Shown here: positions 1 through 29,116 of the stretch, one piece after another
Numbering within the stretch: the stretch's first letter is position 1
How the letters are laid out: each line of letters starts with the position of its first letter
Assembly: GCF_003334355.1 (NCBI RefSeq)
Contig: NZ_QOWP01000031.1
From: Escherichia coli
GTDB lineage: Bacteria > Pseudomonadota > Gammaproteobacteria > Enterobacterales > Enterobacteriaceae
DNA length: 41,182 bases
Strand: one strand, 5' to 3'
Notes under the pieces: generated by a model
The model's input: only the letters and a program-made list of their open reading frames with translations
Databases searched by the model: none
Told to the model about the DNA's origin: nothing
Position numbers and translations under genes: made by a program

Positions 1-90
1 CGTGTCAGTGGTGGCGCATTATAGGGAGTTATTCCGGCCTGACAAGAGGAAATTTAAAATAATTTTCTGACCGCGCAACATTCAACCAAA

Positions 91-948
91 TCAGCCTAAA
101 ACTGCCAGTTTTTCGAGCGTTTCGAAGCCGTAACGCTGTAAAACGGGCAATAATTGTTCAGCTCCTGGCGTCATTGCCATACAAAAGGCAATATTCGCAT
201 CGGCAGATTTTGCATCCGGGGCTTCATGTTCTAACAACCAGGCCGTTCGGCGAGCAATCGCTGCGCCAGAATCCACCAGCCGGGTTCCCTCTGGCAGCAC
301 TTGTAACAGTTCTTCTTGTAGTAGAGGGAAATGGGTGCAACCCAATACAACGGTATCTGGCGGCTCTTTCATTCTTAACCACGGGCGTAGGATACGTTTT
401 AGTGCATCCAGAGAAACATCTTCGCCATGTAGCTTCGCTTCAGCCAACTCAACCATCTCTGCCGAGCCCAGCATTTCTATCTGGCATTCATTAGCGAAAC
501 GCGCGATCAGCTCATGAGTATAAGAACGTTTAACTGTTCCGCGGGTTGCCAGTAATCCGACAATGCCATTTGCCGTCAGACGTGCAGCAGGTTTAATCGC
601 CGGCACGACACCAACAACCGGGAAGTCGAACTTTTCGCGTAATGCAGGAAGTGAAACGGTACTGGCAGTGTTGCAAGCGACCACAGCCAGCGCAAGGGGA
701 TAACGTTCTTGCACCGCGGTGACAATTGCCACCACTCGCTCAACAATAAACGCTTCGCTTTTTTCGCCATACGGGAAAGCGACGTTATCGAAAGCATAAA
801 TGTAATGGAGATCCGGTAAGAGATGCCGGATCTCGTCATAGACCGACAACCCACCGACGCCGGAGTCAAACACCAGCACGGTGGGACGTGGTTCAGAAGG
901 TGTAGCTGCCAGACAAGGTGTATTCCCGTCCTGCAGTTTGGTAGCCAT
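91..948 (-). CDS. murI: Glutamate racemase MurI
   Basis: ORF-track protein (289 aa) recognised as E. coli MurI; start trimmed to the internal Met (MATKLQDG...) giving 285 aa, the length I remember for K-12; ATG confirmed as cat at 946-948 on the plus strand. Confidence 0.9.
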
Positions 949-2737
949 AGACTGTCTCATAATCTTTGTCGAACAGGTTGGCTATTTTACCACGAACTGT
1001 CAGGTGAGAGGTGACCGGATACGCAACCGCAAGATCCCACAAGCTCACACCGCCCATTTTAACGGTTTGATAAGAATAAGATGAGTAATCCTTATCATAG
1101 CGAGTGCCTAAATACTGATAAGTAATACCCCAGTCGAAGTCATACAACTGCCAGTCGAGCTGGTATTTCACCTGCTGTTTAGCACGGCGTAACAACGGCG
1201 TGTCGGTAATCGCATTGCGCGCATCGACATAATCATAACTCACAGTATGCGTCAGTGGTCCGGTATCAAAATTGGCGGTCGCCTCGACGCCCTTAATCCG
1301 CGCTTTCCCTTCGTTGTAATATTTCAGAGTGTGATCATCATAATCGATCAAGTCACTGACATCGTTACGATATCCGGAAATACGCCAGTTCACCCCAGCG
1401 GTTAAGCCTTCAAACGCGCCTTCCCACTGTTTGCTTTTCTCCGGGTCCAGATTCGGATTTCCGTAGAAGCCATACAGTTGCCCCAGATTTGGTGCCTTAT
1501 AAGATGTCCCGTAGGAAGCAATGAAGCGATAACCTTCGATGAATTCCCAACCGGCGCTGGTTTGCCAGGTTCCATGACGACCAAACTGTGAGTTATCGTC
1601 ACTGCGTGCTGCGCCTTCAAAGGTAAAATCGCCGACTTGTTGCAGCCCGGTCAGATAGATGCCGGTATTACGTTGATCATATCCATCCTCAACATAACCT
1701 GTACCCGGCGTCGTAGTCTGTTTCTGCCAGTCGACACCCGCACCAATACTACCGTGACCAACGATGACATTGTTTGCCCACTGGACGGTGTATTGCTTCA
1801 TCTCATCGAGCGTCGCCGACGAATCATAACGACCATAATGGGGATCGTAGTTGTAATCTTTGCTATGGCTATAGCTGGTAATGAGTTGTGATTTAATCAG
1901 TTCGCCGTTATAGCGCAGCCCGGCGTCCCAACTTTGGCTATAGAGTTTACGGGTATCGAGCAACGGTGAACCGGGAGAATAATACGCGTCATAATTGGTA
2001 CGGTTATCATAGCCATAGCCGCGCACAAAGCCGCTCCAGGCATCAGTAAAGTTATGCTCCAGCGCGCCATAAAGCGTTTTACTTAAAAAACCATCGTTAT
2101 CTGTCTGCGCTTGCGTTCCGGTATTACCATAGGCAACAACATCATAACCATGAGTATGGGCATAATCGCCCAACAGCGTTACCCGTGTCTTATCCCCCAG
2201 TTGTTGCTGCGTAGAGACATCATAGTTCTGATAACTATTGCTTCCCCACCCTGCTGAAATTTCCGTTCCGGGTTCATCGCGCGTCGTGATGATATTCACC
2301 ACCCCGCCTATTGCATCGGAACCATAAACAGCGGAGCGCGGCCCACGGATATATTCAACACGCTGGACAAGCGCAATAGGGAACTGGCTAAGGTCGGCAG
2401 AACCACTCACCCCCGCCAGATTCAGGCGTACGCCATCAATTAACACCAACACATGACTGGCATTTGTACCGCGAATAAAAATAGATGAGAGCTGACCTGA
2501 ACCGCCGTTTTGGGTGATATCGACGCCCGGAAGACGGCGCAGCACATCATTGACCGAGGTCGACTGCCAGCGGTCGATATCCTGACGGGTCACAACGGTG
2601 GTTGGTGCAAGCACAGTGCTGCGCGGCTGTTCAAAACGGTTAGCAGTAACGACGAGAGTATCCGGGCTGGTATCCTGTGCCCAAGCGGAAAATGCCGTGA
2701 CGGAACACGCCGTCAGCAGCGAAGCTTTTTTAATCAT
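893..2737 (-). CDS. btuB: TonB-dependent outer-membrane vitamin B12 transporter BtuB
   Basis: 629-aa ORF contains the BtuB sequence starting [10 protein letters not shown] (signal peptide, TonB box DTLVVTA, C-terminal beta-barrel ending in F); start set at the internal Met (614 aa). The 3' end overlaps the murI start by 56 bp. Confidence 0.92.
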
Positions 2738-2977
2738 TGTAAAGCATCCACAATAGAAGAAGGATGCCGCAGGTTTCATCAATATTACGCGATGATGAGA
2801 ACCAGATGCGACGTTGGCCGGCAGGTCTTCGGGCTTGGAGGGGTATCTAAGATACTAAGAGATGATGACTTCCCACCGGATGGCAGTGTCCGCATAACGC
2901 AATCATCGCACCTTTCCTTACCGCTGCGCGTCAGCTCCAGATTCGCACTGGATTCCCTATTAACTCACAGGACCGGC
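2738..2977 (-). promoter_or_regulatory. Cobalamin (B12) riboswitch in the btuB 5' leader
   Basis: Roughly 240-nt untranslated leader directly upstream of the btuB ATG; minus-strand sequence GCCGGTCCTGTGAGTTAATAGGGAATCCAGTGCGAAT... and the B12-box-like GAAGACCTGCCGGCC (plus-strand 2811-2835) match the btuB leader as I remember it. The 5' boundary is approximate. Confidence 0.75.
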
Positions 2978-3105
2978 AAGTGGATGCTACAGGTTGTAAC
3001 AAGTTACTGTCCAGACGTAGCTCACAAATAGGAATTCATCAAGATCTGGACATCTGATGAGCAATCCCTACAATCGCCGCGTACTTTAATTTTTCAGGAT
3101 ACATC

Positions 3106-4206
3106 ATGACCCCCGAACACCTTCCAACAGAACAGTATGAAGCGCAGTTAGCCGAAAAAGTGGTACGTTTGCAAAGTATGATGGCACCGTTTTCTGACCT
3201 GGTTCCGGAAGTGTTTCGCTCGCCGGTCAGTCATTACCGGATGCGCGCGGAGTTCCGCATCTGGCACGATGGCGATGACCTGTATCACATCATTTTCGAT
3301 CAACAAACCAAAAGCCGCATCCGCGTGGATAGCTTCCCCGCCGCCAGTGAACTTATCAACCAGTTGATGACGGCGATGATTGCGGGTGTGCGTAATAATC
3401 CCGTTCTGCGCCACAAGTTGTTCCAGATTGATTACCTCACTACGCTGAGTAATCAGGCGGTGGTTTCCCTGCTATACCATAAGAAGCTGGATGATGAGTG
3501 GCGTCAGGAAGCGGAGGCCCTGCGCGATGCACTGCGCGCGCAGAATCTGAATGTGCATCTGATTGGTCGGGCAACGAAAACCAAAATCGAGCTGGATCAG
3601 GATTACATCGATGAACGTCTGCCGGTCGCAGGGAAAGAGATGATCTACCGTCAGGTAGAAAACAGCTTTACCCAGCCGAACGCGGCGATGAATATTCAGA
3701 TGCTGGAATGGGCGCTGGACGTAACCAAAGGCTCAAAAGGCGATTTACTGGAGCTGTACTGCGGCAACGGTAACTTTTCATTAGCGCTGGCGCGCAATTT
3801 TGATCGGGTATTAGCCACCGAAATCGCTAAGCCGTCGGTTGCTGCTGCGCAATACAACATCGCAGCTAACCATATTGATAACGTACAAATTATTCGTATG
3901 GCGGCAGAAGAATTTACTCAGGCGATGAATGGTGTGCGCGAGTTTAACCGCCTGCAAGGGATCGACTTAAAGAGTTATCAGTGCGAAACCATTTTTGTCG
4001 ACCCACCGCGCAGCGGTCTGGACAGTGAAACCGAGAAAATGGTGCAGGCGTATCCGCGTATTTTGTACATCTCCTGTAACCCGGAAACGTTATGCAAGAA
4101 TCTGGAAACATTAAGCCAGACGCACAAGGTCGAACGTCTGGCTCTGTTTGATCAGTTCCCCTACACGCACCATATGGAGTGCGGCGTATTACTGACCGCG
4201 AAGTAA
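3106..4206 (+). CDS. trmA: tRNA (uracil54-C5)-methyltransferase TrmA
   Basis: 366-aa ORF, full-length match to the remembered TrmA sequence ([18 protein letters not shown]...). Confidence 0.92.
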
Positions 4207-4213
4207 AACCCAT

Positions 4214-4235
4214 GCCGGATGCGCCAGCATCCGGC
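4214..4235. terminator. Perfect hairpin between convergent trmA and yijD (likely bidirectional terminator)
   Basis: GCCGGATGC-GCCA-GCATCCGGC: 9-bp perfect stem with a 4-nt loop, read directly from the sequence, sitting between two convergent stop codons. Confidence 0.55.
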
Positions 4236-4245
4236 ATAATACCGA

Positions 4246-4605
4246 TTACTCAGCAACTTCCTGCTTACGGTTACGCATCTTCGCGCCAATCCAGAACACC
4301 ATAATGACGGAGAGTACTGCCGGGAAGAAGTTAGAGCCGATATCCGGATATTCCGCACGAACTACCGTGCTGTACAGCAGTACGCCGAGAATAAAACAGG
4401 CAGCTGCCAGACCCGGCAAGCCTACCGGCATAGTGCGATTAAGATAACGTTGATGCAGGCAGTAAACCGTCAGCACCAGGGAAATAATCGGGAATACAGA
4501 AAATGGCACAATGGAGCTAAACAGCGCTGCGAAAGTACCATTAATCGATAAGCCAGCAACTAACGCCAGCAGCAGCGTACCTCTATCTTGATTTGCTTGT
4601 TTCAT
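4246..4605 (-). CDS. yijD: Inner-membrane protein YijD (DUF1422)
   Basis: 119-aa ORF, strongly hydrophobic with predicted TM helices; position between trmA and fabR as in K-12. Confidence 0.85.
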
Positions 4606-5252
4606 TACTCGTCCTTCACATTTCCCGGAATAATTGCGGTTTTCTCTTGTTCACGGCGATACCAGTAATAAGCCCCTTTCGAAATCATTCGCAGTTGCAG
4701 TACCAGTCGCTCTTCTAATTGCCGACGTTGTTCGACGCCGACGTCCAACGCCTCGGCACCCGCACTGAAGACAATTGTCACCATTGCTTCGGCTTGCGCT
4801 TCAGTAAACGCACGCGGCATATGGTTTTCGAGTTCCAGATAGTCCGCAAGTTCCGCAATGAAGTGCTGAATTTCACGCGCAACGGCGGCACGAAACGCAG
4901 CGGAGGTGCCGGAGCGTTCCCGCAATAATAACCGGAAGGCGTTAGGATTATTACCGATGAACTCCATAAATGTGGAGACCGAGGTGCGGATCACACTCCC
5001 GCCTTTGGCGATACGCTGACGCGCCTGGCGCATGAGTTGGCGTAGCATTAAACCGCTCTCATCAACCATGGTCAGACCCAGTTCGTCTACGTCGCGGAAA
5101 TGCCGATAAAAAGAGGTGGGAGCAATGCCCGCTTCACGCGCCACTTCACGCAAACTCAGGCTGGCGAAGCTGCGTTCAGCACTTAATTGGCTAAATGCGG
5201 CTTCCACCAGCGAACGGCGGGTTTTTTCTTTTTGTTGCGCTCTTACGCCCAT
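4605..5252 (-). CDS. fabR: TetR-family repressor of unsaturated fatty-acid synthesis FabR
   Basis: ORF-track 247-aa protein trimmed to the internal Met ([20 protein letters not shown]...), giving 215 aa; helix-turn-helix region recognisable; cat at 5250-5252. Confidence 0.85.
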
Positions 5253-5585
5253 CACGATGTCTGAATCCTTGCCAAAAGTACTGCTGGCACTATACCAGAG
5301 AATGAACATACTGGATTGCTCCAGTATTGTGAATGAACGGTAACGCAATAAAACATATTTACTGCAATTCTTTGGCCGGTTCTTTTACGTACAGCGGAAA
5401 CCTGCCGCTTAAACGGAGAGTATCGTCGATAAAAATCCAATAAAACGTCAGGGCAAAAGTAAGAAACAGACAAAGCAAAGGCCGCTCAGGATATAGCCAG
5501 ATAAATGACGGGGATCAATTGGCTTACCCGCGATAAAATGTTACCATTCTGTTGCTTTTATGTATAAGAACAGGTAAGCCCTACC

Positions 5586-6986
5586 ATGCCACATTCCTAC
5601 GATTACGATGCCATAGTAATAGGTTCCGGCCCCGGCGGCGAAGGCGCTGCAATGGGCCTGGTTAAGCAAGGTGCGCGCGTCGCAGTTATCGAGCGTTATC
5701 AAAATGTTGGCGGCGGTTGCACCCACTGGGGCACCATCCCGTCGAAAGCTCTCCGTCACGCCGTCAGCCGCATTATAGAATTCAATCAAAACCCACTTTA
5801 CAGCGACCATTCCCGACTGCTCCGCTCTTCTTTTGCCGATATCCTTAACCATGCCGATAACGTGATTAATCAACAAACGCGCATGCGTCAGGGATTTTAC
5901 GAACGTAATCACTGTGAAATATTGCAGGGAAACGCTCGCTTTGTTGACGAGCATACGTTGGCGCTGGATTGCCCGGACGGCAGCGTTGAAACACTAACCG
6001 CTGAAAAATTTGTTATTGCCTGCGGCTCTCGTCCATATCATCCAACAGATGTTGATTTCACCCATCCACGCATTTACGACAGCGACTCAATTCTCAGCAT
6101 GCACCACGAACCGCGCCATGTACTTATCTATGGTGCTGGAGTGATCGGCTGTGAATATGCGTCGATCTTCCGCGGTATGGATGTAAAAGTGGATCTGATC
6201 AACACCCGCGATCGCCTGCTGGCATTTCTCGATCAAGAGATGTCAGATTCTCTCTCCTATCACTTCTGGAACAGTGGCGTAGTGATTCGTCACAACGAAG
6301 AGTACGAGAAGATCGAAGGCTGTGACGATGGTGTGATCATGCATCTGAAGTCGGGTAAAAAACTGAAAGCTGACTGCCTGCTCTATGCCAACGGTCGCAC
6401 CGGTAATACCGATTCGCTGGCGTTACAGAACATTGGGCTAGAAACTGACAGCCGCGGACAGCTGAAGGTCAACAGCATGTATCAGACCGCACAGCCACAC
6501 GTTTACGCGGTGGGCGACGTGATTGGTTATCCGAGCCTGGCGTCGGCGGCCTATGACCAGGGGCGCATTGCCGCACAGGCGCTGGTAAAAGGCGAAGCCA
6601 CCGCACATCTGATTGAAGATATCCCTACCGGTATTTACACCATCCCGGAAATCAGCTCTGTGGGCAAAACCGAACAGCAGCTGACCGCAATGAAAGTGCC
6701 ATATGAAGTGGGCCGCGCCCAGTTTAAACATCTGGCACGCGCACAAATCGTCGGCATGAACGTGGGCACGCTGAAAATTTTGTTCCATCGGGAAACAAAA
6801 GAGATTCTGGGTATTCACTGCTTTGGCGAGCGCGCTGCCGAAATTATTCATATCGGTCAGGCGATTATGGAACAGAAAGGTGGCGGCAACACTATTGAGT
6901 ACTTCGTCAACACCACCTTTAACTACCCGACGATGGCGGAAGCCTATCGGGTAGCTGCGTTAAACGGTTTAAACCGCCTGTTTTAA
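5586..6986 (+). CDS. sthA: Soluble pyridine nucleotide transhydrogenase SthA (UdhA)
   Basis: 466-aa ORF with N-terminal FAD-binding motif GSGPGG and flavoprotein disulfide-reductase family architecture; matches remembered SthA. Confidence 0.92.
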
Positions 6987-7886
6987 AACTTTATCGAAAT
7001 GGCCATCCATTCTTGCGCGGATGGCCTCTGCCAGCTGCTCATAGCGGCTGCGCAGCGGTGAGCCAGGACGATAAACCAGGCCAATAGTGCGGCGTGGTTC
7101 CGGCTTAATGCACGGCAGATAAACAACCCCATCGCGTTTGCGCTCCGGCGGCACAGCCAGCGCTGGCAGTAAAGTGATCCCGCTACCTGCCGCCACCATG
7201 TTGCGCAGAGTTTCCAGGCTGGTCGCGCGGAAGTGTGTATCTTCATCCGCCCCGGCTTCAAAACAGAAACCCATTGCCTGATCGCGCAAACAGTGACCAT
7301 CTTCCAGCATCAGCAGTTTTTCCCCTGCCAGATCGGCCATCGGTACGCATTCGCGGTTCGCCCACGGGTGATCTTCATAGATAGCCAGCAACATTGGCTC
7401 ATCAAACAACGGCACTTCAATGAATGCTTCGCTCTCTTTCACCAGCGCGAGGATCACGCAATCGAGTTTGCCGCTGTCCAGTTGCGCCAGTAACTGGTGG
7501 GTCTGTGCTTCATGCAGATACATTTCCAGCTTTGGAAAGGTCTGGTGCAGCATAGGGATAATATGCGGTAGCAGGTACGGTCCAACTGTGGGAATCAAAC
7601 CAATGTGCAGCGGTCCGGACATCGTCTCGCCCTGCTGGCTTGCCATCTCTTTAAGGACTTTCACCTCACGCAGCACGGTACGCGCCTGATCCACCAGCAG
7701 CATTCCCGCCTGGGTGAACAACACTTTACGGCTGGTCCGCTCCAGCAACATCACGCCCAGCTCATCTTCCAGCTTACGAATTTGCCCGCTAAGCGTCGGC
7801 TGGCTAACGTGGCAGGAATCTGCCGCACGCCGAAAATGGCGGTGTTCAGCCAATGCCACCAGGTACTCAAGATCACGAATATTCAT
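6969..7886 (-). CDS. oxyR: LysR-family hydrogen-peroxide-responsive regulator OxyR
   Basis: 305 aa from the internal Met ([44 protein letters not shown]...); the 3' end overlaps the sthA 3' end convergently by 18 bp. Confidence 0.92.
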
Positions 7887-7981
7887 TATCCATCCTCCAT
7901 CGCCACGATAGTTCATGGCGATAGGTAGAATAGCAATGAACGATTATCCCTATCAAGCATTCTGACTGATAATTGCTCACA
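7887..7981. promoter_or_regulatory. Divergent oxyR/oxyS promoter region with OxyR operator
   Basis: Intergenic segment between the oxyR start and the oxyS 5' end (ATAGGTAGAATAGCAATGAACGATTATCCCTATCAAGCATTC...); OxyR autoregulation and oxyS activation from this region is established knowledge. Individual operator half-sites were not delimited. Confidence 0.6.
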
Positions 7982-8090
7982 GAAACGGAGCGGCACCTCT
8001 TTTAACCCTTGAAGTCACTGCCCGTTTCGAGAGTTTCTCAACTCGAATAACTAAAGCCAACGTGAACTTTTGCGGATCTCCAGGATCCGC
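7982..8090 (+). ncRNA. oxyS: OxyS small regulatory RNA
   Basis: 109-nt sequence GAAACGGAGCGGCACCTCTTTTAACCCTTGAAGTCACTGCCCGTTTCGAGAGTTTCTCAACTCGAATAACTAAAGCCAACGTGAACTTTTGCGGATCTCCAGGATCCGC matches oxyS as I remember it; ends in a GC hairpin (GCGGATCTCCAGGATCCGC) followed by T8 at 8091-8098. Confidence 0.85.
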
Positions 8091-8152
8091 TTTTTTTTGC
8101 CATAAAAAAGCCCGGCGATAAGCCAGGCTCAAATTTATACATATAAATGTTC

Positions 8153-9526
8153 TTACCCTAACCGAGCATGCGCAAAAGCAATCGCCTGCGCCACCTGCTG
8201 CGGTGAGACGCCGCCTTTTGCCGCACGCTTGTCGAGGCACGATTGCAGCGACAGAATCGGATAGACATCTTCGTCAATCACCTGACTGAATTTCTGCAAC
8301 TCACTGAGCGGCAGATCTTCCAGCGGTTTGCCCTGACGAATGGCTTCCACCACCGCTTCACCAACAATATGGTGCGCCTCGCGGAACGGTACGCCTTTCG
8401 CCACCAGATAATCCGCCAGTTCGGTGGCGTTGGCGTAACCCTGCTGAGCCGCTTCCTGGCAACGTGGACGTTTCACCTGAATGCCGTCCAGCACCAGCGC
8501 CGCCATATGCAGGCAGTCCAGCCAGGTATCGAGCGCGTCGAACAGACCTTCTTTGTCTTCCTGCATATCTTTGTTGTAAGCCAGCGGCAAACCTTTCAGC
8601 GTCATCATCATGCCGGTTAACGCCCCCTGCACCCGACCGCATTTACCGCGAATCAGCTCCAGCGCATCCGGGTTTTTCTTCTGCGGCATTAATGATGAAC
8701 CGGAAGTCACGCGGTCAGAAAGCTCCACAAACCCCGCTTCGCCGGTGTTAAAGAAAATCAGATCTTCAGCAAAACGCGACAGATGCACCATGCCGATAGC
8801 GGCAGCAGAAAGCAGTTCCAACACATGGTCACGGTCAGAAACGCTGTCGAGACTGTTACGGGTCGCCGAAGCAAAGCCCAGCCAGCCTGCTAACTGTTCA
8901 CGGTCGATTTCATAGGCCGTTCCCGCCAGCGCGCCACAGCCTAGCGGGCTGACATCCAGACGCTTAAGCGCATCCTGCAAACGGCTTTCATCACGCGCCA
9001 GCATCTCAACATAGGCCAGGCACCAGTGCGCGAACGTCACCGGCTGGGCGCGTTGCAGGTGAGTGTAACCTGGCATTACCGCGTCCTGATTGTTTTGTGC
9101 GGTTTCCACCAGCGCCGATTGCAGCTGCCGGTTAGCCGTCAGTAACTCGCTAACGGTATCTTTGCACCACAGTTTCAGGTCAGTCGCTACCTGATCATTA
9201 CGGCTACGCCCGGTATGCAGCTTTTTGCCTAACTGGCCCACTTTGTCGATCAGTTTGCCTTCCACCCAGCTATGGATATCTTCGGCGTCGCTTTCAAGGA
9301 TTTGTTGTGGCCTGGCGCGAACATCTTCCAGCAACACGTTCAGCGCCTCTTCCAGTTGCGCCTGCTCTTCTGCGGTTAACACGCCTACCGTGACCAGGGC
9401 TTTGGACCAGGCCACAGAGCCAACAATATCCTGCTCCGCCAGACGGTAATCAAAGCGCAGTGAGTCGTTGAATTGTTTGAACCGTTGATCTGCTGCCTGG
9501 GTAAAACGCCCGCCCCAAAGTGCCAT
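8153..9526 (-). CDS. argH: Argininosuccinate lyase ArgH
   Basis: 457-aa ORF, full-length match to remembered ArgH ([34 protein letters not shown]...). Confidence 0.93.
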
Positions 9527-9586
9527 AACTCTGTTTCCTTATTTTGAAATTCAATGCCGGAAAGCTGCGCCTCCGGCCAACAAAAC

Positions 9587-10363
9587 TTAAGCTAAAATCC
9601 GCGTACCCATCGGCATACCGTTAAACAGTGCCGGAAGCTGCTCCGCATGACGCCAGGAGGCGATATCTACCGGACGGCCCAGCGTGCGGGCCGCATCCAG
9701 CGCCGCGTTCACTTTCACTATCATGCCGTCAGTAATAATGCCCTGCTCAATCAGTTGTTCTGCTTTCGCGGCGGTCATTTCGGCAATGCGTTGCCCTTTG
9801 CCGTCGAGAATGCCGCTGACGTCGGAGAGCAAAATCAGATCCGCGCCCAGCGTTGCCGCCAGCGCCGTTGCCGCCTGGTCGGCATTGACGTTCATCAGTT
9901 GCCCTTCGTCTGTTACGCCAATGGAGCTGACCACCGGCAGATAACCGTTCTCCAGCAAGGAGTTGATAAGCTTAGGCGAACCTGGCTGCGCCAGTCCAAC
10001 ATGGCCTAACTCTTCATCAAGCTGGGTCACTTTGACGCTGTCGCCGTCACCGAGAAACAAACCTACGGCCGCAATCTGATGTTTCTTCGCCCATGCCAAC
10101 AGGGTTTTATTTGCCGTTCCCGCCAGTGCTCCGGTGATAATGTCTATCTGATCCGCAGGCGTCACCCGCAGGCCATTTTTCTTTTTCACCGGCAGATTCA
10201 GCCCTTTCATCAGCTCATCCACCACGCAACCGCCGCCGTGCACAATCACCAGCGGACGCTGATGTGACTCACGATAATTCACCAGTGCGCTAAACAGACG
10301 TTCCAGCGCCTCTTCACTATCCAGCAGTACGCCGCCCAGTTTGATAATTAATGGATTCATCAT
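9587..10363 (-). CDS. argB: Acetylglutamate kinase ArgB
   Basis: ORF trimmed to [24 protein letters not shown]... (258 aa); amino-acid kinase family; cat at 10361-10363. Confidence 0.9.
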
Positions 10364-10370
10364 TGCACCC

Positions 10371-11375
10371 TTAAATAAGAGACTGCGTTTCCGCATAGCC
10401 GAAACGAATATTGGCGCACTGTACCGCTTGTGCCGCCGCGCCTTTCAGTAAGTTGTCTTCGGTCGCCACAATAATCAGATGCTCGCCCTGAACGGCAAAC
10501 CCGATATCGCAAAATGGCAGCCCAACGACATTTTTCAGCGCCGGAACGCCTTTGTCATACAGCCGCACCAGCGGTTTATGGGCATACGCCTGCTGTAACA
10601 CTTGCGCGACTTGCGCCTGGGTCACACCCGATTTCAGGCGGCAGGTAATGGTTTCGAGAATGCCGCGCGGGAAATTGCCCAGATGTGGGGTGAAGATAAC
10701 GTCAGCACCGAGGTGTGTGGCGATCTCTGGTTGATGGCGATGAGTAAAGACGCCATACGGTTGCAGGCTAACTTCACAAAAGCTGTTTGAAATGGCCGCT
10801 TTACGCCCTGCACCGCTCACGCCGCTGGTGGCGTTGATCACCGGCCACTGATTGAGGTCAAGAAGATCGGCATCAATCAACGGTTTCAGCGCCAGCTGTG
10901 CCGCCGTCGGATAACAGCCCGGCACCGCAATCAAATTCGCTTCTTTTAATTTATTACCGCACCACTCCGCCAGACCGTAGGCTGCCTGTTCCAACAGTTC
11001 CGGGTATTGATGGGTAAAGCCGTAATATTTTTCATAGAAGGTGGCGTCGTTAACACGAAACGCGCCGGAAAGGTCGAACACCACGCAGCCCGCTTCAAGA
11101 AACTGCGGCGCTAAATCGTGGCTAACTTCATGGGCGGTGGCGAGAAACACTACGTCCACCCCTGGGCTAAACTCGCTGATATCCGACATCGGCTGCAACG
11201 GCAGATCAACGATGCCTTTTAGCTGCGGATGCAAATCGGAGATTAACTTTCCCGCATCATTGCTTTGCGCTGAAACAGTCAAAGCGGTTATGTTCATATG
11301 CGGATGGCGATTTACATAGGTCACTAGCTCTGCGCCAGCGTAGCCGCTGGCACCCACAATCAGCGTATTCAACAT
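10371..11375 (-). CDS. argC: N-acetyl-gamma-glutamyl-phosphate reductase ArgC
   Basis: 334-aa ORF ([18 protein letters not shown]...) with Rossmann motif GASGYAG; matches remembered ArgC. Confidence 0.93.
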
Positions 11376-11528
11376 CGGGGCTATTCACCTTCTTATGTCT
11401 GGTTGCCAGGTTAAACGTAAAACATTCACCTTACGGCTGGTGGGTTTTATTACGCTCAACGTTAGTGTATTTTTATTCATAAATACTGCATGAATATTGA
11501 TACTATCATGACCAGAGGTGTGTCAACA
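11376..11528. promoter_or_regulatory. Divergent argE / argCBH control region with ARG boxes
   Basis: Between divergent argC and argE; contains TTTATTCATAAATACTGCATGAATATTGATACTATCATGA (about 11472-11512), which looks like tandem ArgR operator boxes (TnTGAAT...ATTCAnA-like). Confidence 0.65.
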
Positions 11529-12680
11529 ATGAAAAACAAATTACCGCCATTTATCGAGATTTACCGCGCTCTGATTGCCACACCTTCAATAAGCGCCACG
11601 GAAGAGGCACTCGATCAAAGCAATGCAGATTTAATCACTCTGCTGGCGGACTGGTTTAAAGATTTGGGCTTCAATGTGGAAGTGCAGCCTGTTCCAGGAA
11701 CTCGCAACAAATTCAATATGCTGGCAAGTATCGGACAGGGGGCTGGCGGCTTGTTGCTGGCGGGGCATACCGATACGGTGCCATTTGATGACGGTCGCTG
11801 GACGCGCGATCCGTTTACACTGACGGAGCATGACGGCAAGCTTTACGGCTTAGGCACCGCCGACATGAAAGGCTTTTTTGCGTTTATCCTTGATGCGCTA
11901 CGCGATGTCGACGTCACGAAACTGAAAAAACCGCTCTACATTCTGGCGACTGCTGATGAAGAAACCAGTATGGCCGGAGCGCGTTATTTTGCCGAAACTA
12001 CCGCCCTGCGCCCGGATTGCGCCATCATTGGCGAACCGACGTCACTACAACCGGTACGCGCACATAAAGGTCATATCTCTAACGCCATCCGTATTCAGGG
12101 CCAGTCGGGGCACTCCAGCGATCCAGCACGCGGAGTTAACGCTATCGAACTAATGCACGACGCCATCGGGCATATTTTGCAATTGCGCGATAACCTGAAA
12201 GAACGTTATCACTACGAAGCGTTTACCGTGCCATACCCTACGCTCAACCTCGGGCATATTCACGGTGGCGACGCTTCTAACCGTATTTGCGCTTGCTGTG
12301 AGTTGCATATGGATATTCGTCCGCTGCCTGGCATGACACTCAATGAACTTAATGGTTTGCTCAACGATGCATTGGCTCCGGTGAGCGAACGCTGGCCGGG
12401 CCGTCTGACGGTCGACGAGCTGCATCCGCCGATCCCTGGCTATGAATGCCCACCGAATCATCAACTGGTTGAAGTGGTTGAGAAATTGCTCGGAGCAAAA
12501 ACCGAAGTGGTGAATTACTGTACCGAAGCGCCGTTTATTCAAACGTTATGCCCGACGCTGGTGCTCGGTCCGGGTTCCATCAATCAAGCTCATCAGCCTG
12601 ATGAATATCTGGAGACGCGGTTTATTAAACCCACCCGTGAGTTGATTATCCAGGTAATTCACCATTTTTGCTGGCATTAA
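11529..12680 (+). CDS. argE: Acetylornithine deacetylase ArgE
   Basis: ORF-track protein trimmed to [26 protein letters not shown]... (383 aa); M20 peptidase family; atg at 11529. Confidence 0.9.
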
Positions 12681-12683
12681 AAC

Positions 12684-12785
12684 GTAGGCCGGATAAGGCG
12701 CTCGCGCCGCATCCGGCACCGTTGCCAAACTCCTGTGCCGCAATAATGTCGGATGCGATACTTGCGCATCTTATCCGACCTACAC
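12684..12785. repeat. REP/BIME cluster (two inverted REP units)
   Basis: GTAGGCCGGATAAGGCGCTCGCGCCGCATCCGGCAC and GTCGGATGCGATACTTGCGCATCTTATCCGAC: imperfect palindromes with the GCCGGATAAGGCG...CATCCGGC REP signature. Confidence 0.8.
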
Positions 12786-13031
12786 CTTTGGTGTTACTTG
12801 GGGCGATTTTTTAACATTTCCATAAGTTACGCTTATTTAAAGCGTCGTGAATTTAATGACGTAAATTCCTGCTATTTATTCGTTTGCTGAAGCGATTTCG
12901 CAGCATTTGACGTCACCGCTTTTACGTGGCTTTATAAAAGACGACGAAAAACAAAGCCCGAGCATATTCGCGCCAATGCGACGTGAAGGATACAGGGCTA
13001 TCAAACGATAAGATGGGGTGTCTGGGGTAAT

Positions 13032-15683
13032 ATGAACGAACAATATTCCGCATTGCGTAGTAATGTCAGTATGCTCGGCAAAGTGCTGGGAGAAACCATC
13101 AAGGATGCGTTGGGAGAACACATTCTTGAACGCGTAGAAACTATCCGTAAGTTGTCGAAATCTTCACGCGCTGGCAATGATGCTAACCGCCAGGAGTTGC
13201 TCACTACCTTACAAAATTTGTCGAACGACGAGCTGCTGCCCGTTGCGCGTGCGTTTAGTCAGTTCCTGAACCTGGCCAACACCGCCGAGCAATACCACAG
13301 CATTTCGCCGAAAGGCGAAGCTGCCAGCAACCCGGAAGTGATCGCCCGCACCCTGCGTAAACTGAAAAACCAGCCGGAACTGAGCGAAGACACCATCAAA
13401 AAAGCAGTGGAATCGCTGTCGCTGGAACTGGTCCTCACGGCTCACCCAACCGAAATTACCCGTCGTACACTGATCCACAAAATGGTGGAAGTGAACGCCT
13501 GTTTAAAACAGCTCGATAACAAAGATATCGCTGACTACGAACACAACCAGCTGATGCGTCGCCTGCGCCAGTTGATCGCCCAGTCATGGCATACCGATGA
13601 AATCCGTAAGCTGCGTCCAAGCCCGGTAGATGAAGCCAAATGGGGCTTTGCCGTAGTGGAAAACAGCCTGTGGCAAGGCGTACCAAATTACCTGCGCGAA
13701 CTGAACGAACAACTGGAAGAGAACCTCGGCTACAAACTGCCCGTCGAATTTGTTCCGGTCCGTTTTACTTCGTGGATGGGCGGCGACCGCGACGGCAACC
13801 CGAACGTCACTGCCGATATCACCCGCCACGTCCTGCTACTCAGCCGCTGGAAAGCCACCGATTTGTTCCTGAAAGATATTCAGGTGCTGGTTTCTGAACT
13901 GTCGATGGTTGAAGCGACCCCTGAACTGCTGGCGCTGGTTGGCGAAGAAGGTGCCGCAGAACCGTATCGCTATCTGATGAAAAACCTGCGTTCTCGCCTG
14001 ATGGCGACACAGGCATGGCTGGAAGCGCGCCTGAAAGGCGAAGAACTGCCAAAACCAGAAGGCCTGCTGACACAAAACGAAGAACTGTGGGAACCGCTCT
14101 ACGCTTGCTACCAGTCACTTCAGGCGTGTGGCATGGGTATTATCGCCAACGGCGATCTGCTCGACACCCTGCGCCGCGTGAAATGTTTCGGCGTACCGCT
14201 GGTCCGTATTGATATCCGTCAGGAGAGCACGCGTCATACCGAAGCGCTGGGCGAGCTGACCCGCTACCTCGGTATCGGCGACTACGAAAGCTGGTCAGAG
14301 GCCGACAAACAGGCGTTCCTGATCCGCGAACTGAACTCCAAACGTCCGCTTCTGCCGCGCAACTGGCAACCAAGCGCCGAAACGCGCGAAGTGCTCGATA
14401 CCTGCCAGGTGATTGCCGAAGCACCGCAAGGCTCCATTGCCGCCTACGTGATCTCGATGGCGAAAACGCCGTCCGACGTACTGGCTGTCCACCTGCTGCT
14501 GAAAGAAGCGGGTATCGGGTTTGCGATGCCGGTTGCTCCGCTGTTTGAAACCCTCGATGATCTGAACAACGCCAACGATGTCATGACCCAGCTGCTCAAT
14601 ATTGACTGGTATCGTGGCCTGATTCAGGGCAAACAGATGGTGATGATTGGCTATTCCGACTCAGCAAAAGATGCGGGAGTGATGGCAGCTTCCTGGGCGC
14701 AATATCAGGCACAGGATGCATTAATCAAAACCTGCGAAAAAGCGGGTATTGAGCTGACGTTGTTCCACGGTCGCGGCGGTTCCATTGGTCGCGGCGGCGC
14801 ACCTGCTCATGCGGCGCTGCTGTCACAACCGCCAGGAAGCCTGAAAGGCGGCCTGCGCGTAACCGAACAGGGCGAGATGATCCGCTTTAAATATGGTCTG
14901 CCAGAAATCACCGTCAGCAGCCTGTCGCTTTATACCGGGGCGATTCTGGAAGCCAACCTGCTGCCACCGCCGGAGCCGAAAGAGAGCTGGCGTCGCATTA
15001 TGGATGAACTGTCAGTCATCTCCTGCGATGTCTACCGCGGCTACGTACGTGAAAACAAAGATTTTGTGCCTTACTTCCGCTCCGCTACGCCGGAACAAGA
15101 ACTGGGCAAACTGCCGTTGGGTTCACGTCCGGCGAAACGTCGCCCAACCGGCGGCGTCGAGTCACTACGCGCCATTCCGTGGATCTTCGCCTGGACGCAA
15201 AACCGTCTGATGCTCCCCGCCTGGCTGGGTGCAGGTACGGCGCTGCAAAAAGTGGTCGAAGACGGCAAACAGAGCGAGCTGGAGGCTATGTGCCGCGATT
15301 GGCCATTCTTCTCGACGCGTCTCGGCATGCTGGAGATGGTCTTCGCCAAAGCAGACCTGTGGCTGGCGGAATACTATGACCAACGCCTGGTAGACAAAGC
15401 ACTGTGGCCGTTAGGTAAAGAGTTACGCAACCTGCAAGAAGAAGACATCAAAGTGGTGCTGGCGATTGCCAACGATTCCCATCTGATGGCCGATCTGCCG
15501 TGGATTGCAGAGTCTATTCAGCTACGGAATATTTACACCGACCCGCTGAACGTATTGCAGGCCGAGTTGCTGCACCGCTCCCGCCAGGCAGAAAAAGAAG
15601 GCCAGGAACCGGATCCTCGCGTCGAACAAGCGTTAATGGTCACTATTGCCGGGATTGCGGCAGGTATGCGTAATACCGGCTAA
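13032..15683 (+). CDS. ppc: Phosphoenolpyruvate carboxylase Ppc
   Basis: 883-aa ORF ([30 protein letters not shown]...), ending ...GMRNTG as in remembered Ppc. Confidence 0.95.
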
Positions 15684-15697
15684 TCTTCCTCTTCTGC

Positions 15698-15728
15698 AAA
15701 CCCTCGTGCTTTTGCGCGAGGGTTTTCT
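15698..15728 (+). terminator. Rho-independent terminator of ppc
   Basis: AAACCCTCG-TGCTTTTGCG-CGAGGGTTT stem-loop followed by TTTTCT, 15 nt after the ppc stop. Confidence 0.7.
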
Positions 15729-15864
15729 GAAATACTTCTGTTCTAACACCCTCGTTTTCAATATATTTCTGTCTGCATTTTATTCAAATTCTGAATATAC
15801 CTTCAGATATCCTTAAGGAATTGTCGTTACATTCGGCGATATTTTTTCAAGACAGGTTCTTACT

Positions 15865-17598
15865 ATGCATTCCACAGAAGTCCAGGCTAAACCTCTTTTT
15901 AGCTGGAAAGCCCTGGGTTGGGCACTGCTCTACTTTTGGTTTTTCTCTACTCTGCTACAGGCCATTATTTACATCAGTGGTTATAGTGGCACTAACGGCA
16001 TTCGCGACTCGCTGTTATTCAGTTCGCTGTGGTTGATCCCGGTATTCCTCTTTCCGAAGCGGATTAAAATTATTGCCGCAGTAATCGGCGTGGTGCTATG
16101 GGCGGCCTCTCTGGCGGCGCTGTGCTACTACGTCATCTACGGTCAGGAGTTCTCGCAGAGCGTTCTGTTTGTGATGTTCGAAACCAACACCAACGAAGCC
16201 AGCGAGTATTTAAGCCAGTATTTCAGCCTGAAAATTGTGCTTATCGCGCTGGCCTATACGGCGGTGGCAGTTCTGCTGTGGACACGCCTGCGCCCGGTCT
16301 ATATTCCAAAGCCGTGGCGTTATGTTGTCTCTTTTGCCCTGCTTTATGGCTTGATTCTGCATCCGATCGCCATGAATACGTTTATCAAAAACAAGCCGTT
16401 TGAGAAAACGTTGGACAACCTGGCCTCGCGTATGGAGCCTGCCGCACCGTGGCAATTCCTGACCGGCTATTATCAGTATCGTCAGCAACTAAACTCGCTA
16501 ACAAAGCTACTGAATGAAAATAATGCCTTGCCGCCGCTGGCTAATTTCAAAGATGAATCGGGTAACGAACCGCGCACCTTAGTGCTGGTGATTGGCGAGT
16601 CAACCCAGCGTGGACGCATGAGTCTGTACGGTTATCCGCGTGAAACCACGCCGGAGCTGGATGCGCTGCATAAAACCGATCCGAATCTGACCGTGTTTAA
16701 TAACGTGGTTACGTCTCGTCCGTACACCATTGAAATCCTGCAACAGGCGCTGACCTTTGCCAATGAAAAGAACCCGGACCTGTATCTGACGCAGCCGTCG
16801 CTGATGAACATGATGAAACAGGCGGGTTATAAAACCTTCTGGATCACCAACCAGCAGACGATGACCGCCCGCAATACCATGCTGACGGTATTTTCGCGCC
16901 AGACCGACAAGCAGTACTACATGAACCAGCAACGTACGCAGAGTGCGCGTGAATACGACACCAACGTGCTGAAGCCGTTCCAGGATGTGCTGAATGACCC
17001 TGCGCCGAAGAAACTGATCATCGTTCATCTGCTGGGTACGCATATCAAATACAAATACCGCTACCCGGAAAATCAGGGCAAGTTTGATGGCAATACCGAT
17101 CATGTTCCGCCAGGATTAAGCGCAGAAGAGCTGGAATCATATAACGATTATGACAACGCTAACCTGTATAACGATCATGTGGTTGCCAGCCTGATTAAAG
17201 ACTTTAAAGCGGCAGACCCGAACGGATTCCTGGTTTACTTCTCTGACCACGGTGAAGAGGTTTACGACACGCCGCCTCATAAAACCCAGGGGCGTAATGA
17301 GGACAACCCGACGCGTCATATGTACACCATTCCGTTCCTGCTGTGGACGTCGGAAAAATGGCAAGCGACTCATCCCCGTGATTTCTCACAGGATGTCGAT
17401 CGTAAATACAGCCTGGCGGAACTGATCTACACCTGGTCAGATTTGGCGGGCTTATCTTACGACGGTTACGATCCAACCCGTTCAGTGGTGAATCCGCAGT
17501 TCAAAGAAACTACCCGCTGGATTGGTAACCCGTACAAGAAAAACGCGCTGATCGATTACGACACACTGCCGTATGGCGATCAGGTGGGTAATCAGTAA
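15865..17598 (+). CDS. eptC: Phosphoethanolamine transferase EptC (YijP)
   Basis: 577-aa ORF with N-terminal multi-TM region and C-terminal sulfatase-like domain; position after ppc as in K-12. Confidence 0.88.
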   Translation: MHSTEVQAKPLFSWKALGWALLYFWFFSTLLQAIIYISGYSGTNGIRDSLLFSSLWLIPVFLFPKRIKIIAAVIGVVLWAASLAALCYYVIYGQEFSQSVLFVMFETNTNEASEYLSQYFSLKIVLIALAYTAVAVLLWTRLRPVYIPKPWRYVVSFALLYGLILHPIAMNTFIKNKPFEKTLDNLASRMEPAAPWQFLTGYYQYRQQLNSLTKLLNENNALPPLANFKDESGNEPRTLVLVIGESTQRGRMSLYGYPRETTPELDALHKTDPNLTVFNNVVTSRPYTIEILQQALTFANEKNPDLYLTQPSLMNMMKQAGYKTFWITNQQTMTARNTMLTVFSRQTDKQYYMNQQRTQSAREYDTNVLKPFQDVLNDPAPKKLIIVHLLGTHIKYKYRYPENQGKFDGNTDHVPPGLSAEELESYNDYDNANLYNDHVVASLIKDFKAADPNGFLVYFSDHGEEVYDTPPHKTQGRNEDNPTRHMYTIPFLLWTSEKWQATHPRDFSQDVDRKYSLAELIYTWSDLAGLSYDGYDPTRSVVNPQFKETTRWIGNPYKKNALIDYDTLPYGDQVGNQ

Positions 17599-17616
17599 TT
17601 ATCAGCCAGGCGCTAT

Positions 17617-17700
17617 TTGCCGGATGCGACGCTTGACGCGTCTTATCCGGCCTACAGATCGCGGCGGTAGGCTGGATAAGGCGTTTACGCCACATCCGGC
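17617..17700. repeat. REP/BIME cluster
   Basis: TGCCGGATGCGACGCTTGACGCGTCTTATCCGGCCTACA ... GGCTGGATAAGGCGTTTACGCCACATCCGGCA: paired REP palindromes. Confidence 0.8.
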
Positions 17701-17812
17701 AATACAACTGCCGCAATGTTTACATCGAACTCCCCTCAGGCCACACTTTTCAGGTGGCCTTTTTTAATAATGCCAGTTACTGTTTTCCCGTCTACATACC
17801 TAAGGGAATAAC

Positions 17813-18664
17813 ATGTATCACGACGTCAGCTATCTGCTCTCCCGCCTGATCAACGGCCCGCTGTCCCTGCGCCAGATTTACTTTGCCAGCAGTAACGGCC
17901 CGGTGCCCGATCTTGCGTATCAGGTCGATTTTCCACGGCTGGAAATTGTGCTGGAAGGTGAGTTTGTTGATACCGGCGCTGGAGCAACGTTAGTTCCCGG
18001 CGATGTGCTGTACGTTGCCGCTGGTGGCTGGAATTTCCCACAATGGAAAACACCCGCTACCACCTTTAGCGTGCTGTTTGGCAAACAGCAACTCGGCTTC
18101 AGCGTCGTGCAATGGGATGGCAAACAATATCAAAATCTGGCGAAGCAACACGTCGCCCGGCGCGGCCCACGCATAGGTTCTTTTCTGCTACAAACGCTCA
18201 ATGAAATGCAAATGCAGCCGCAGGAGCAGCAAACGGCAAGGCTTATCGTCGCCAGCCTGCTTAGCCACTGCCGCGATTTGCTTGGCAGCCAAATCCAGAC
18301 CGCCTCACGCAGCCAGGCACTATTTGAAGCTATTCGCGATTATATCGACGAACGCTATGCCTCCGCGCTTACCCGCGAATCTGTTGCGCAGGCGTTTTAT
18401 ATTTCGCCAAATTACCTCTCGCACCTGTTTCAAAAAACGGGGGCCATTGGTTTTAACGAATACCTGAATCACACGCGACTGGAGCACGCTAAGACGTTAT
18501 TGAAAGGCTATGACCTGAAGGTAAAAGAAGTGGCGCACGCCTGCGGCTTTGTCGACAGCAACTACTTCTGCCGTCTGTTTCGTAAAAACACCGAACGCTC
18601 GCCGTCGGAATATCGTCGGCAGTACCACAGCCAACTGACAGAAAAACCGACTACTCCAGAATAA
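17813..18664 (+). CDS. yijO: AraC/XylS-family transcriptional regulator YijO
   Basis: 283-aa ORF; C-terminal AraC-type HTH recognisable (...YISPNYLSHLFQKTGAIGFNEYLNHTRLEHAKTLL...). Confidence 0.85.
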   Translation: MYHDVSYLLSRLINGPLSLRQIYFASSNGPVPDLAYQVDFPRLEIVLEGEFVDTGAGATLVPGDVLYVAAGGWNFPQWKTPATTFSVLFGKQQLGFSVVQWDGKQYQNLAKQHVARRGPRIGSFLLQTLNEMQMQPQEQQTARLIVASLLSHCRDLLGSQIQTASRSQALFEAIRDYIDERYASALTRESVAQAFYISPNYLSHLFQKTGAIGFNEYLNHTRLEHAKTLLKGYDLKVKEVAHACGFVDSNYFCRLFRKNTERSPSEYRRQYHSQLTEKPTTPE

Positions 18665-18992
18665 GATGGGTTTGCTGCGGCGCAGAAAGCACTTTGCGCA
18701 CCGCGCTCATTACCCGCTGCGGCTCACGCAGGAATGCGTAGATGCTGCATTGCACATAGCGGCAATGTTCAAATCGCTCGGCACCGGCAAGCTCGATATC
18801 CGTAATCAACAGAGCAACATCCGCCCGACGGATATCCTCGTCCGCTAAACGATTCTCCGTTCCCAGCGCGCCCTGAGTTTCAATGCTGACTCCCCACTTC
18901 TCTAACAGGCACAACTTTTCCAGCCGTTCCGCCGCCATATAAGTATGCGCCACGCCACTGACGCAGGCGGTTACTGCCACCAGGTATGCCAT
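18651..18992 (-). CDS. frwD: PTS fructose-like EIIB component FrwD
   Basis: 113-aa ORF with the EIIB motif VTACVSGVAHTYMAAE; convergent 14-bp overlap with the yijO 3' end. Confidence 0.88.
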   Translation of the reverse strand: MAYLVAVTACVSGVAHTYMAAERLEKLCLLEKWGVSIETQGALGTENRLADEDIRRADVALLITDIELAGAERFEHCRYVQCSIYAFLREPQRVMSAVRKVLSAPQQTHLILE

Positions 18993-18993
18993 T

Positions 18994-19872
18994 TTAACCT
19001 CCCACGGTAACCTGAAATCCGGCCCGTTCTGCCATTTCGCGCATCGTTGTCACATCGGCTGACGACGGCGCAGGCACCTCTTTCATCGACCATGTTTTCC
19101 CCAGCAGGCGGTATTTCGGTTCGCCGTACTGATGAAACGGTAACAGATGGATCTGCCTGATTTTCAGCGGGATCAGTACATCCAGCGCCTGCTGCATATT
19201 CTCCCGGCTGAGCGTGAAACCAGGGATCAACGGTAAACGCGGGATCACGTTGACACCCTCACTCACCAGCAAACGCAGATTCTCCAGCACGCGTGGCAGG
19301 TTCATCTTCACCACATCCCGCGCCTGAGTCGCGTCCATAATTTTTAAATCGAACAGCACTTCATCGCACAATTTCGCCAGCGGTAACAGCTTGCTTGCTG
19401 GCGCGTCTCCGGCAGTTTCAATGGCGCATGACACACCCCACAGCCGCAGTCGCTGTAAAAAACGGGTAGCAAACTCCGCCTGCATTAACACTTCGCCGCC
19501 AGAAAGCGTGACGCCGCCGCCGGACGTGCGAAAAAAAATGTCATCTTTCATCACTTCCCGTTCCAGAGCGTCAAGGCTGATATCGCGACCAATCCGTTCA
19601 AACGCCCCGGAGGGGCATTCATCCGCATCACGCAAACATTTCGCACAGTGCAGACATTTCGCCTCTCTGCGTACCGTCTGGATTTTGCCGGAGATCGACT
19701 CCGGATTAGCACACCACGGGCAAAGATGCGGACAGCCTTTAAAAAAGACCACCGTACGAATGCCCTCACCGTCATTCAGTGAATAACGCTGAATGTTGAA
19801 AATGCGCGCCACATCATTGCGGCGCGTTTCCACAACGTTACAGCTGATGCGCTGTCCGGCGGATGATGTCAT
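18994..19872 (-). CDS. pflC: Glycyl-radical enzyme activating enzyme (radical SAM) PflC
   Basis: Trimmed to MTSSAGQRISCNVVETRR... (292 aa); radical-SAM CxxxCxxC in GCPHLCPWCANPE; cat at 19870-19872. Confidence 0.88.
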   Translation of the reverse strand: MTSSAGQRISCNVVETRRNDVARIFNIQRYSLNDGEGIRTVVFFKGCPHLCPWCANPESISGKIQTVRREAKCLHCAKCLRDADECPSGAFERIGRDISLDALEREVMKDDIFFRTSGGGVTLSGGEVLMQAEFATRFLQRLRLWGVSCAIETAGDAPASKLLPLAKLCDEVLFDLKIMDATQARDVVKMNLPRVLENLRLLVSEGVNVIPRLPLIPGFTLSRENMQQALDVLIPLKIRQIHLLPFHQYGEPKYRLLGKTWSMKEVPAPSSADVTTMREMAERAGFQVTVGG

Positions 19873-22135: not shown

Positions 22136-22185
22136 GAGGAACTCCTGTGGGAAAGCGAACCCGCCCTTGCGAGCGGGAGAAGAAC

Positions 22186-22506
22186 TTAAGCGGTTTGCGC
22201 CAGGTGAGCTTCAATTTTGCTCATAATGGCGTCAGCACGTTTTACCGCATCGCTGATGTTGACGCGCACGATGGTCTTGCCAGCAAAACGCTCTTCAAAC
22301 TTGATGCCGATATCTTTGGTCAGAATCACCATATCAGCGCTCGCCACGTCTTCCGCTGTCAGTTCATTTTCCAGACCAATTGACCCCTGGGTTTCTACTT
22401 TCACTTCCCAGCCTTTCGCTTTCGCGGCACTTTCCAGCGCCTCTGCTGCCATATAGGTATGGGCAACACCTGAAGGACATGCGGTTACTGCAATAATTTT
22501 CGTCAT
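22186..22506 (-). CDS. frwB: PTS fructose-like EIIB component FrwB
   Basis: 106-aa ORF with VTACPSGVAHTYMAAEALE; paralogous to FrwD. Confidence 0.88.
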   Translation of the reverse strand: MTKIIAVTACPSGVAHTYMAAEALESAAKAKGWEVKVETQGSIGLENELTAEDVASADMVILTKDIGIKFEERFAGKTIVRVNISDAVKRADAIMSKIEAHLAQTA

Positions 22507-22520
22507 GGCTTGTTCCTCAA

Positions 22521-23600: not shown

Positions 23601-23908
23601 AAGCTGCTCCCGGGCTTGCAAAAGCCCATGTCCATATTTTTGATGGAGGAAACAATAGGCAATCGCAGGCGGAGCAAACAGTGGATAAAAAGGCCATTTA
23701 CTGGACTTTTGTAATATCAGTACAAAAATGCGATCCGCCTCATAACTTGCGATAATCCGGAAGCATGCCGCAAAACGGCGTCTTGTGAGACGCGTCGCAA
23801 ATTGACGGTTACATTACATTTGTCCAGCTTTTGGCAGATTTGTCACATGGCAGGCCGTTGCCGTGCGCTCTTATCCTGTAAACAGAAAACCGTACCGGGA
23901 GAGAGGCA

Positions 23909-26410: not shown

Positions 26411-26421
26411 AAGGAAACATC

Positions 26422-27084: not shown

Positions 27085-27094
27085 AGGAGCAATT

Positions 27095-28198: not shown

Positions 28199-28205
28199 CC
28201 TACTC

Positions 28206-28230
28206 CAAACTCCCGGCTTGTCCGGGAGTT
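28206..28230 (+). terminator. Hairpin immediately after gldA (possible terminator)
   Basis: AAACTCCCGG-CTTGT-CCGGGAGTTT: perfect 10-bp stem, but only a weak T-tract follows, so function as an intrinsic terminator is uncertain. Confidence 0.45.
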
Positions 28231-28243
28231 TGAACGCAAAATT

Positions 28244-28343
28244 GCCTGATGCGCTACGCTTATCAGGCCTACGCAATCTCTGCAATATATTGAATTTGCG
28301 TGCTTTTGTAGGCCGGATAAGGCGTTCACTCCGCATCCGGCAC
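28244..28343. repeat. REP/BIME cluster
   Basis: GCCTGATGCGCTACGCTTATCAGGCCTACG ... TGTAGGCCGGATAAGGCGTTCACTCCGCATCCGGCAC; almost the same arrangement as the cluster at 38083-38181. Confidence 0.8.
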
Positions 28344-29090: not shown

Positions 29091-29116
29091 GAGATCGCCC
29101 CACATGAAGAAAAAAT

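Follow-up and report, generated by a model that had tools for sequence, protein, structure and literature searches.

The segment 7887..8098 of the window, by which we mean the whole 41,182-nucleotide stretch of Escherichia coli DNA that was analysed, almost certainly (probability about 0.97, judged from sequence) corresponds to the canonical E. coli oxyR-oxyS control region followed by the oxyS small RNA gene. No result of the analysis speaks against this reading. The OxyR circuit and katG are both intact, and we read their linkage as a matter of conserved gene order. The oxyS-oxyR locus as such is already known and ordinary. A preliminary description of the window had placed the 109-nt oxyS sequence and its terminator here, divergent from an intact oxyR and with katG about 22 kb away, and had named an Rfam OxyS covariance-model search and an alignment to K-12 oxyS as the checks to be made. 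Both checks came out in favor of that description, and each of these statements is borne out by the results given below. The features are collected in Table 1.

Table 1. Coordinates of features at the oxyR-oxyS locus and at katG (window positions; strand cell empty where none applies).
Feature	Position	Strand	Details
oxyR CDS, LysR-type H2O2 sensor and transcription factor	6969..7886	-	305 aa
oxyR-oxyS intergenic control region	7887..7981		95 bp; 100% K-12 identity; holds the OxyR-site match and promoter-like elements of oxyR and oxyS
Predicted OxyR site of oxyS	7908..7944		16/20 (4 mismatches); -74 to -38 relative to oxyS +1
Promoter-like site, putative oxyR promoter	7927..7956	-	TTGATA-18-TATTCT with TG; consensus scan
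-10-like GATAAT, putative oxyS promoter	7968..7973	+	read from the sequence; 8 nt upstream of +1 (7982)
oxyS sRNA gene	7982..8098	+	extent of the K-12 RefSeq feature; 117 nt with T tract
OxyS 109-nt RNA	7982..8090	+	
OxyS stem-loop a	7982..8028	+	Rfam structure and fold; loop holds the mepS-pairing nt 25-35 and one of the two fhlA kissing sites
mepS-pairing region, OxyS nt 25-35	8006..8016	+	PMC10798246, mapped to the window
OxyS stem-loop b	8031..8044	+	Rfam structure and fold
nusG-pairing region, OxyS nt 50-84	8031..8065	+	stem-loop b and part of the linker; PMC10798246
OxyS stem-loop c, Rho-independent terminator	8072..8098	+	terminator scan, Rfam, PMC5793797 Fig. 1 legend
Hairpin of stem-loop c, whose loop is the second fhlA kissing site	8072..8090	+	PMC5793797 Fig. 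1 legend
argH terminator-like hairpin	8108..8130	-	terminator scan
argH CDS	8153..9526	-	457 aa; 1 aa difference from K-12
katG CDS, catalase/hydroperoxidase HPI, OxyR-activated	30116..32296	-	726 aa, no internal stop
OxyR-consensus-like site near katG	32356..32392		14/20; 60-96 bp upstream of the katG start codon

The whole window was scanned against Rfam 15 with the curated gathering thresholds. The top hit, to the OxyS family RF00035, is at 7982..8091 (+) with 139.5 bits, compared with a gathering score of 75, and an E value of 3e-29. The match spans model positions 1-110 of 110, and its structure line contains no non-canonical pairs. The K-12 RefSeq ncRNA oxyS (b4458, 4158278..4158394) maps to window positions 7982..8098, and direct alignment of window 7860-8160 with K-12 MG1655 gives 100% identity with 0 mismatches. 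Chance could not produce agreement of this kind. Thus, the interval 7887..8098 picked out in the preliminary description is made up of the 95-bp control region (7887..7981) and the RNA with its T tract. The oxyS gene (7982..8098, +) sits in the oxyR-argH intergenic region, divergent from oxyR (6969..7886, -) and convergent with argH.

The minimum-free-energy fold of 7982..8098 contains three hairpins, with an energy of -32.9 kcal/mol and z = -2.84 relative to dinucleotide shuffles. This fold agrees with the Rfam consensus, showing stem-loops a, b, and c and a single-stranded linker between b and c. The terminator scan places the stem of the OxyS terminator at 8072..8090, with 8 bp including 5 G-C pairs and a 3-nt loop, followed directly by T8. 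The nucleotides published as pairing with the targets (nt 25-35 for mepS, nt 50-84 for nusG, and loops a and c for fhlA) are unchanged, and the whole RNA is identical to that of K-12.

Compared with K-12 b3961, oxyR shows 0 nucleotide differences, and its frame is free of internal stops. The K-12 ATG is at 7886; the list of open reading frames extends the frame to 7916 (315 aa). The protein has cysteines at positions 25, 143, 180, 199, 208, and 259, so that the redox-active Cys199 and Cys208 are both present. It scores 632.9 bits against the NCBIfam equivalog NF008361 (cut-off 329) over residues 1-305 of 305, including the N-terminal DNA-binding domain, and residues 87-305 match PDB entries 1I6A and 1I69, the regulatory domains of E. 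coli OxyR. At its other end, oxyR is convergent with sthA (5586..6986), and the 3' ends of the two genes overlap by 18 bp (6969..6986), as in K-12.

The katG gene differs from that of K-12 at 19 nucleotides, giving 3 amino acid substitutions near the C terminus, T656A, F675Y, and L725M. KatG scores 1397.3 bits against TIGR00198 (cut-off 770.25), and its gene is preceded by 328 bp that do not differ from K-12. Between the oxyS T tract (8098) and the closer end of katG (30116) there are 22,018 bp; from promoter to promoter, the distance is about 24.4 kb.

For the search for OxyR sites, the binding consensus was taken as ATAGnTnnnAnCTAT-n7-ATAGnTnnnAnCTAT, with 20 specified bases. When up to 3 mismatches were allowed, there were 0 matches in the whole window. 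The search was redone with every position ranked by its match count and with the expectation taken from 500-bp block shuffles. The top score in the 41-kb window is found at 7908..7944, for which only 0.013 matches are expected per window. The strict search misses this predicted oxyS site because the site carries 4 mismatches, natural OxyR sites being degenerate. OxyR-binding sites have been reported upstream of oxyS (PMC8825220).

The putative oxyR promoter (7927..7956, -) overlaps the OxyR-site match at 7908..7944. We suggest that these hexamers are the oxyR promoter, and the overlap would fit autorepression by OxyR; oxyR is scored 'N' (negatively regulated) in Table S1 of PMC7617757. On the + strand of the control region, the promoter scan found no full sigma-70 consensus and no good -35 element for oxyS, as would be expected for a promoter that depends on an activator.

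The match near katG, 32356..32392, is the third-best in the window, and its score is no higher than chance would give (0.96 expected per window). Since the motif score cannot single out the katG site, its assignment rests on its position and on K-12 identity. It is probably the katG OxyR site that Toledano et al. (1994) are reported to have footprinted.

The second-best match to the OxyR consensus in the window, 33530..33566 (15/20), is found upstream of metF, 15-51 bp from its start codon. We considered metF as an additional member of the OxyR regulon and set it aside; 0.10 matches of this quality are expected per window, metF is not among the 31 known promoters, and the match is probably due to chance. 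Both metE and metR are within the 31-promoter OxyR list (PMC7617757).

The mechanism set out here derives from published work on K-12, in which the locus has the identical sequence. OxyR works through a disulfide between Cys199 and Cys208, a mechanism that goes with the 1I69 and 1I6A structures. Among bacterial sRNAs that are induced by stress and act in trans, oxyS was the founding example. In the window strain, H2O2 would oxidise OxyR to give the Cys199-Cys208 disulfide. Oxidised OxyR would then bind at about -74 to -38 and activate the oxyS promoter with its weak -35, and the same site, overlapping the divergent oxyR promoter, would allow autorepression. The 109-nt OxyS would form three hairpins, the last of them being the intrinsic terminator, and would work in trans with Hfq. 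Repression of fhlA would go through a two-site kissing complex with OxyS loops a and c, and OxyS would repress mepS and nusG with nt 25-35 (loop a) and nt 50-84, respectively, while rpoS translation would be lowered indirectly as OxyS titrates Hfq. The expected outcome is a transient cell-cycle arrest together with an antimutator effect. Separately, OxyR would activate katG from its own promoter 24 kb away. We infer H2O2-induced expression in the window strain, and the exact promoter hexamers, from sequence.

The individual steps have been described for K-12. OxyS is induced by H2O2 via OxyR (PMC8825220). Direct pairing with OxyS represses fhlA and flhDC; the repression of rpoS is indirect and comes from titration of Hfq (PMC5793797). 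Nucleotides 50-84 pair with nusG, and the lower level of NusG leads to more kilR expression from the rac prophage, inhibition of FtsZ, transient division arrest, and an antimutator effect (PMC5793797). Loop A represses mepS by way of nucleotides 25-35, and this repression keeps elongation in balance with division (PMC10798246).

The closest known system is the K-12 MG1655 locus itself. Nucleotide identity with it extends through oxyR, the control region, oxyS, and the two terminators to where the argH 3' end begins, with the same neighbors in the same orientation and the same three-hairpin structure of OxyS. There is no difference within the oxyR-oxyS locus, whereas the surrounding chromosome differs slightly, with 98.7-99.7% identity. 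Outside the locus, the differences from K-12 include the 3 amino acid changes in KatG and an argE-ppc spacer that has, in the window, one repeat unit (about 142 bp) fewer. The locus has little discovery value, being identical to that of the reference strain. An intact OxyR circuit of sensor, sRNA, and catalase is still a useful negative when genomes are scanned for lesions or novelties.

A more distant relative is a peroxiredoxin-glutaredoxin gene found in Yersiniaceae, Pectobacteriaceae, Vibrionales, and others, which occupies the same position, is transcribed divergently from oxyR, and is separated from it by a region that holds an OxyR site (PMC8825220). It has been proposed that oxyS probably arose from the 3' end of this OxyR-regulated gene, which is still at this position outside Enterobacteriaceae, and the 3' end and terminator of the proposed ancestor are homologous to OxyS (PMC8825220). 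The gene in those groups is protein-coding, whereas here only an RNA of about 110 nt remains, with no ORF on the + strand.

The same oxyS sequence, as a 117-nt query, is found in 5426 of 5426 complete E. coli genomes, with identity of at least 99% in 4877, 95-99% in 548, and 88% in one. Among the matches listed, every non-K-12 row has no RefSeq annotation under the oxyS match, and the record of E. coli C has no feature between oxyR and argH. By contrast, PGAP does annotate the nearby cobalamin riboswitch in non-K-12 genomes. The warning in the preliminary description that ORF-based annotation would miss oxyS is therefore apt; the gene is missing from the non-K-12 RefSeq/PGAP tables inspected, though present in all 5426 genomes. 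Because oxyS is invisible to such annotation, a covariance-model pass is needed to record it.

Could oxyS be a silent relic in this strain, with the sequence kept and its expression or function lost? We give this hardly any weight. All of its parts, from the promoter region and OxyR site to the RNA and terminator, are identical to those of the experimentally characterised K-12 gene (PMC5793797), and the gene for the regulator, oxyR, is K-12-identical as well. Furthermore, identity of at least 99% in 4877 of the 5426 genomes indicates purifying selection on the RNA. It is just as improbable that the interval encodes a small protein instead of, or besides, the RNA. The mechanical ORF list does include two frames here, 7977..8240 (87 aa, GTG start) and 8038..8142 (34 aa), but both are antisense to oxyS and cross two terminators and the argH 3' end. 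The 87-aa frame is on the argH strand, in another frame, and covers the last 88 bp of the argH CDS (8153..8240). No CDS is called there in the K-12 or PGAP annotations, and the ORF list has no + strand ORF of at least 20 aa within oxyS. These antisense frames were rejected as spurious, and the interval is read as the oxyS RNA gene.

The E. coli chromosome in the window corresponds to about 4.127-4.166 Mb of K-12 MG1655, read as the reverse complement, as found by BLAST against the annotated K-12 segment, with an identity of 99.7% for window 1..12784 and 98.7% for 12681..36131. The gene order is the same in both, murI-btuB-trmA-yijD-fabR-sthA-oxyR-oxyS-argHBC-argE-ppc-eptC-yijO-frwD-pflCD-frwBC-ptsA-fsaB-gldA-yijF-yijE-katG-metF-metL-metB-metJ-yiiX. 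The preliminary description had rightly called the arrangement a known one; the order oxyR-oxyS-argH is that of K-12 and is described in PMC8825220.

It had also stated that oxidative-stress regulon genes are clustered in the window, which overstates the case. The currently known E. coli OxyR regulon comprises 31 promoters (PMC7617757), and the window contains 2 of these approximately 31 promoter regions, those of oxyR/oxyS and katG only. By the K-12 annotation, 19 functionally unrelated genes lie between the two loci, including argHBC, argE, ppc, eptC, yijO, frwD, pflCD, frwBC, ptsA, fsaB, gldA, yijF, and yijE. We calculated the chance expectation analytically by placing the other 29 promoters at random on 4.64 Mb, with the size of the regulon taken from PMC7617757 rather than with the real coordinates of its members. 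The chance of at least one regulon promoter within 22-24 kb of oxyR is then 0.24-0.26, and in a 41-kb window it is 0.23. A functional regulon cluster would have more members near the regulator than chance provides, or would show adjacency or co-transcription; we found none of these here. We read the oxyRS-katG linkage as core-genome synteny plus coincidence, with no functional cluster.

It is nonetheless conceivable that katG and oxyR-oxyS form a functional cluster, with selection for a faster target search by newly made OxyR, or with co-inheritance. Both loci do fall within one 41-kb window, 22-24 kb apart, in an order that is common to K-12 at 98.7-99.7% identity, and the oxyR-katG spacing is presumably similar in Salmonella. 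We consider a functional cluster very unlikely, not only in view of the 2 of about 31 promoters, the 19 intervening genes, and the chance expectation of 0.23-0.26, but also because the other major targets, ahpC, dps, grxA, trxC, fur, and hemH, lie outside the window. Furthermore, the spacing varies, as about one-third of E. coli genomes have an extra 3 kb beside oxyS. Since OxyR is constitutive and activated post-translationally, proximity would bring no obvious kinetic gain.

This variation in spacing has a sharp boundary. In 1872 of the 5426 complete genomes, the match to window 7600-8400 breaks exactly after the last T of the oxyS terminator (8098/8099). An example is E. coli EC18 (NZ_CP060914.1), in which oxyR and oxyS are essentially as here up to the last terminator T, but about 3.1 kb of other sequence stands in place of the 54-bp oxyS-argH spacer. 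This segment has two genes on the argH strand, one for an MFS transporter and manD for D-mannonate dehydratase, plus an AT-rich stretch and a REP element. The long spacer occurs in about 1872 of 5426 genomes; in the window the spacer is short, as in K-12. At the oxyS-argH junction of one genome, ISApl1 is present instead.

The gene for the other mannonate dehydratase, uxuA, is in the OxyR regulon (PMC7617757 Table S1). Its membership and the presence of manD beside oxyS may be mere coincidence. It might be imagined that the linkage of oxyRS and katG over about 24 kb, together with the sharp boundary at the last oxyS terminator T, reflects selection on the chromosomal neighborhood of OxyR. Such selection might have favored proximity of regulator and target, or might have recruited an oxidant-resistant mannonate dehydratase beside oxyS to back up the OxyR-regulated, iron-dependent UxuA. 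We regard this as a very improbable reading, as it has no support beyond coincidence, and the manD/MFS cassette is absent from the window. Conserved gene order is the explanation that we prefer for the linkage.

Some other differences from K-12 were seen along the window. The argE-ppc spacer (about 12681..12784) is longer in K-12 by about 142 bp, and by BLAST, window 12683..12784 aligns to two adjoining places in K-12, the second at 97%. A repeat search of window 12400-13100 found none that accounts for the difference in length. The extra unit aligned only in K-12; by alignment, the K-12 spacer thus has an intergenic unit of about 100 bp duplicated in tandem, and the window strain lacks this duplication.

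The window contains other RNA elements. A full-length cobalamin riboswitch (RF00174, 86.8 bits) is located at 2803..2992 (-), upstream of btuB, as in K-12. A match to the Rfam family ES036 (CssrF) at 38104..38145 (-) is marginal, with 39.6 bits compared with a gathering score of 37.6. This match falls within the central motif of a mosaic element, flanked by REPs, that lies between metJ and yiiX; another copy of the whole element, with 82% identity, lies between gldA and yijF (28225..28400). Because the element has this second copy, the ES036 match probably reflects a repeat family and not a unique sRNA gene.

The last 2.3 kb of the window (38847..41182) have no counterpart beside yiiX in K-12. 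In genomes with 99.8% identity over this region, the annotation shows an Rhs-element tail together with an IS1 family transposase. The annotations of the Rhs tail are dsORF-f3, a DUF4329 or RhsC fragment, and an RHS core-domain protein. Pieces of this region recur, with a median of 8 times per genome.
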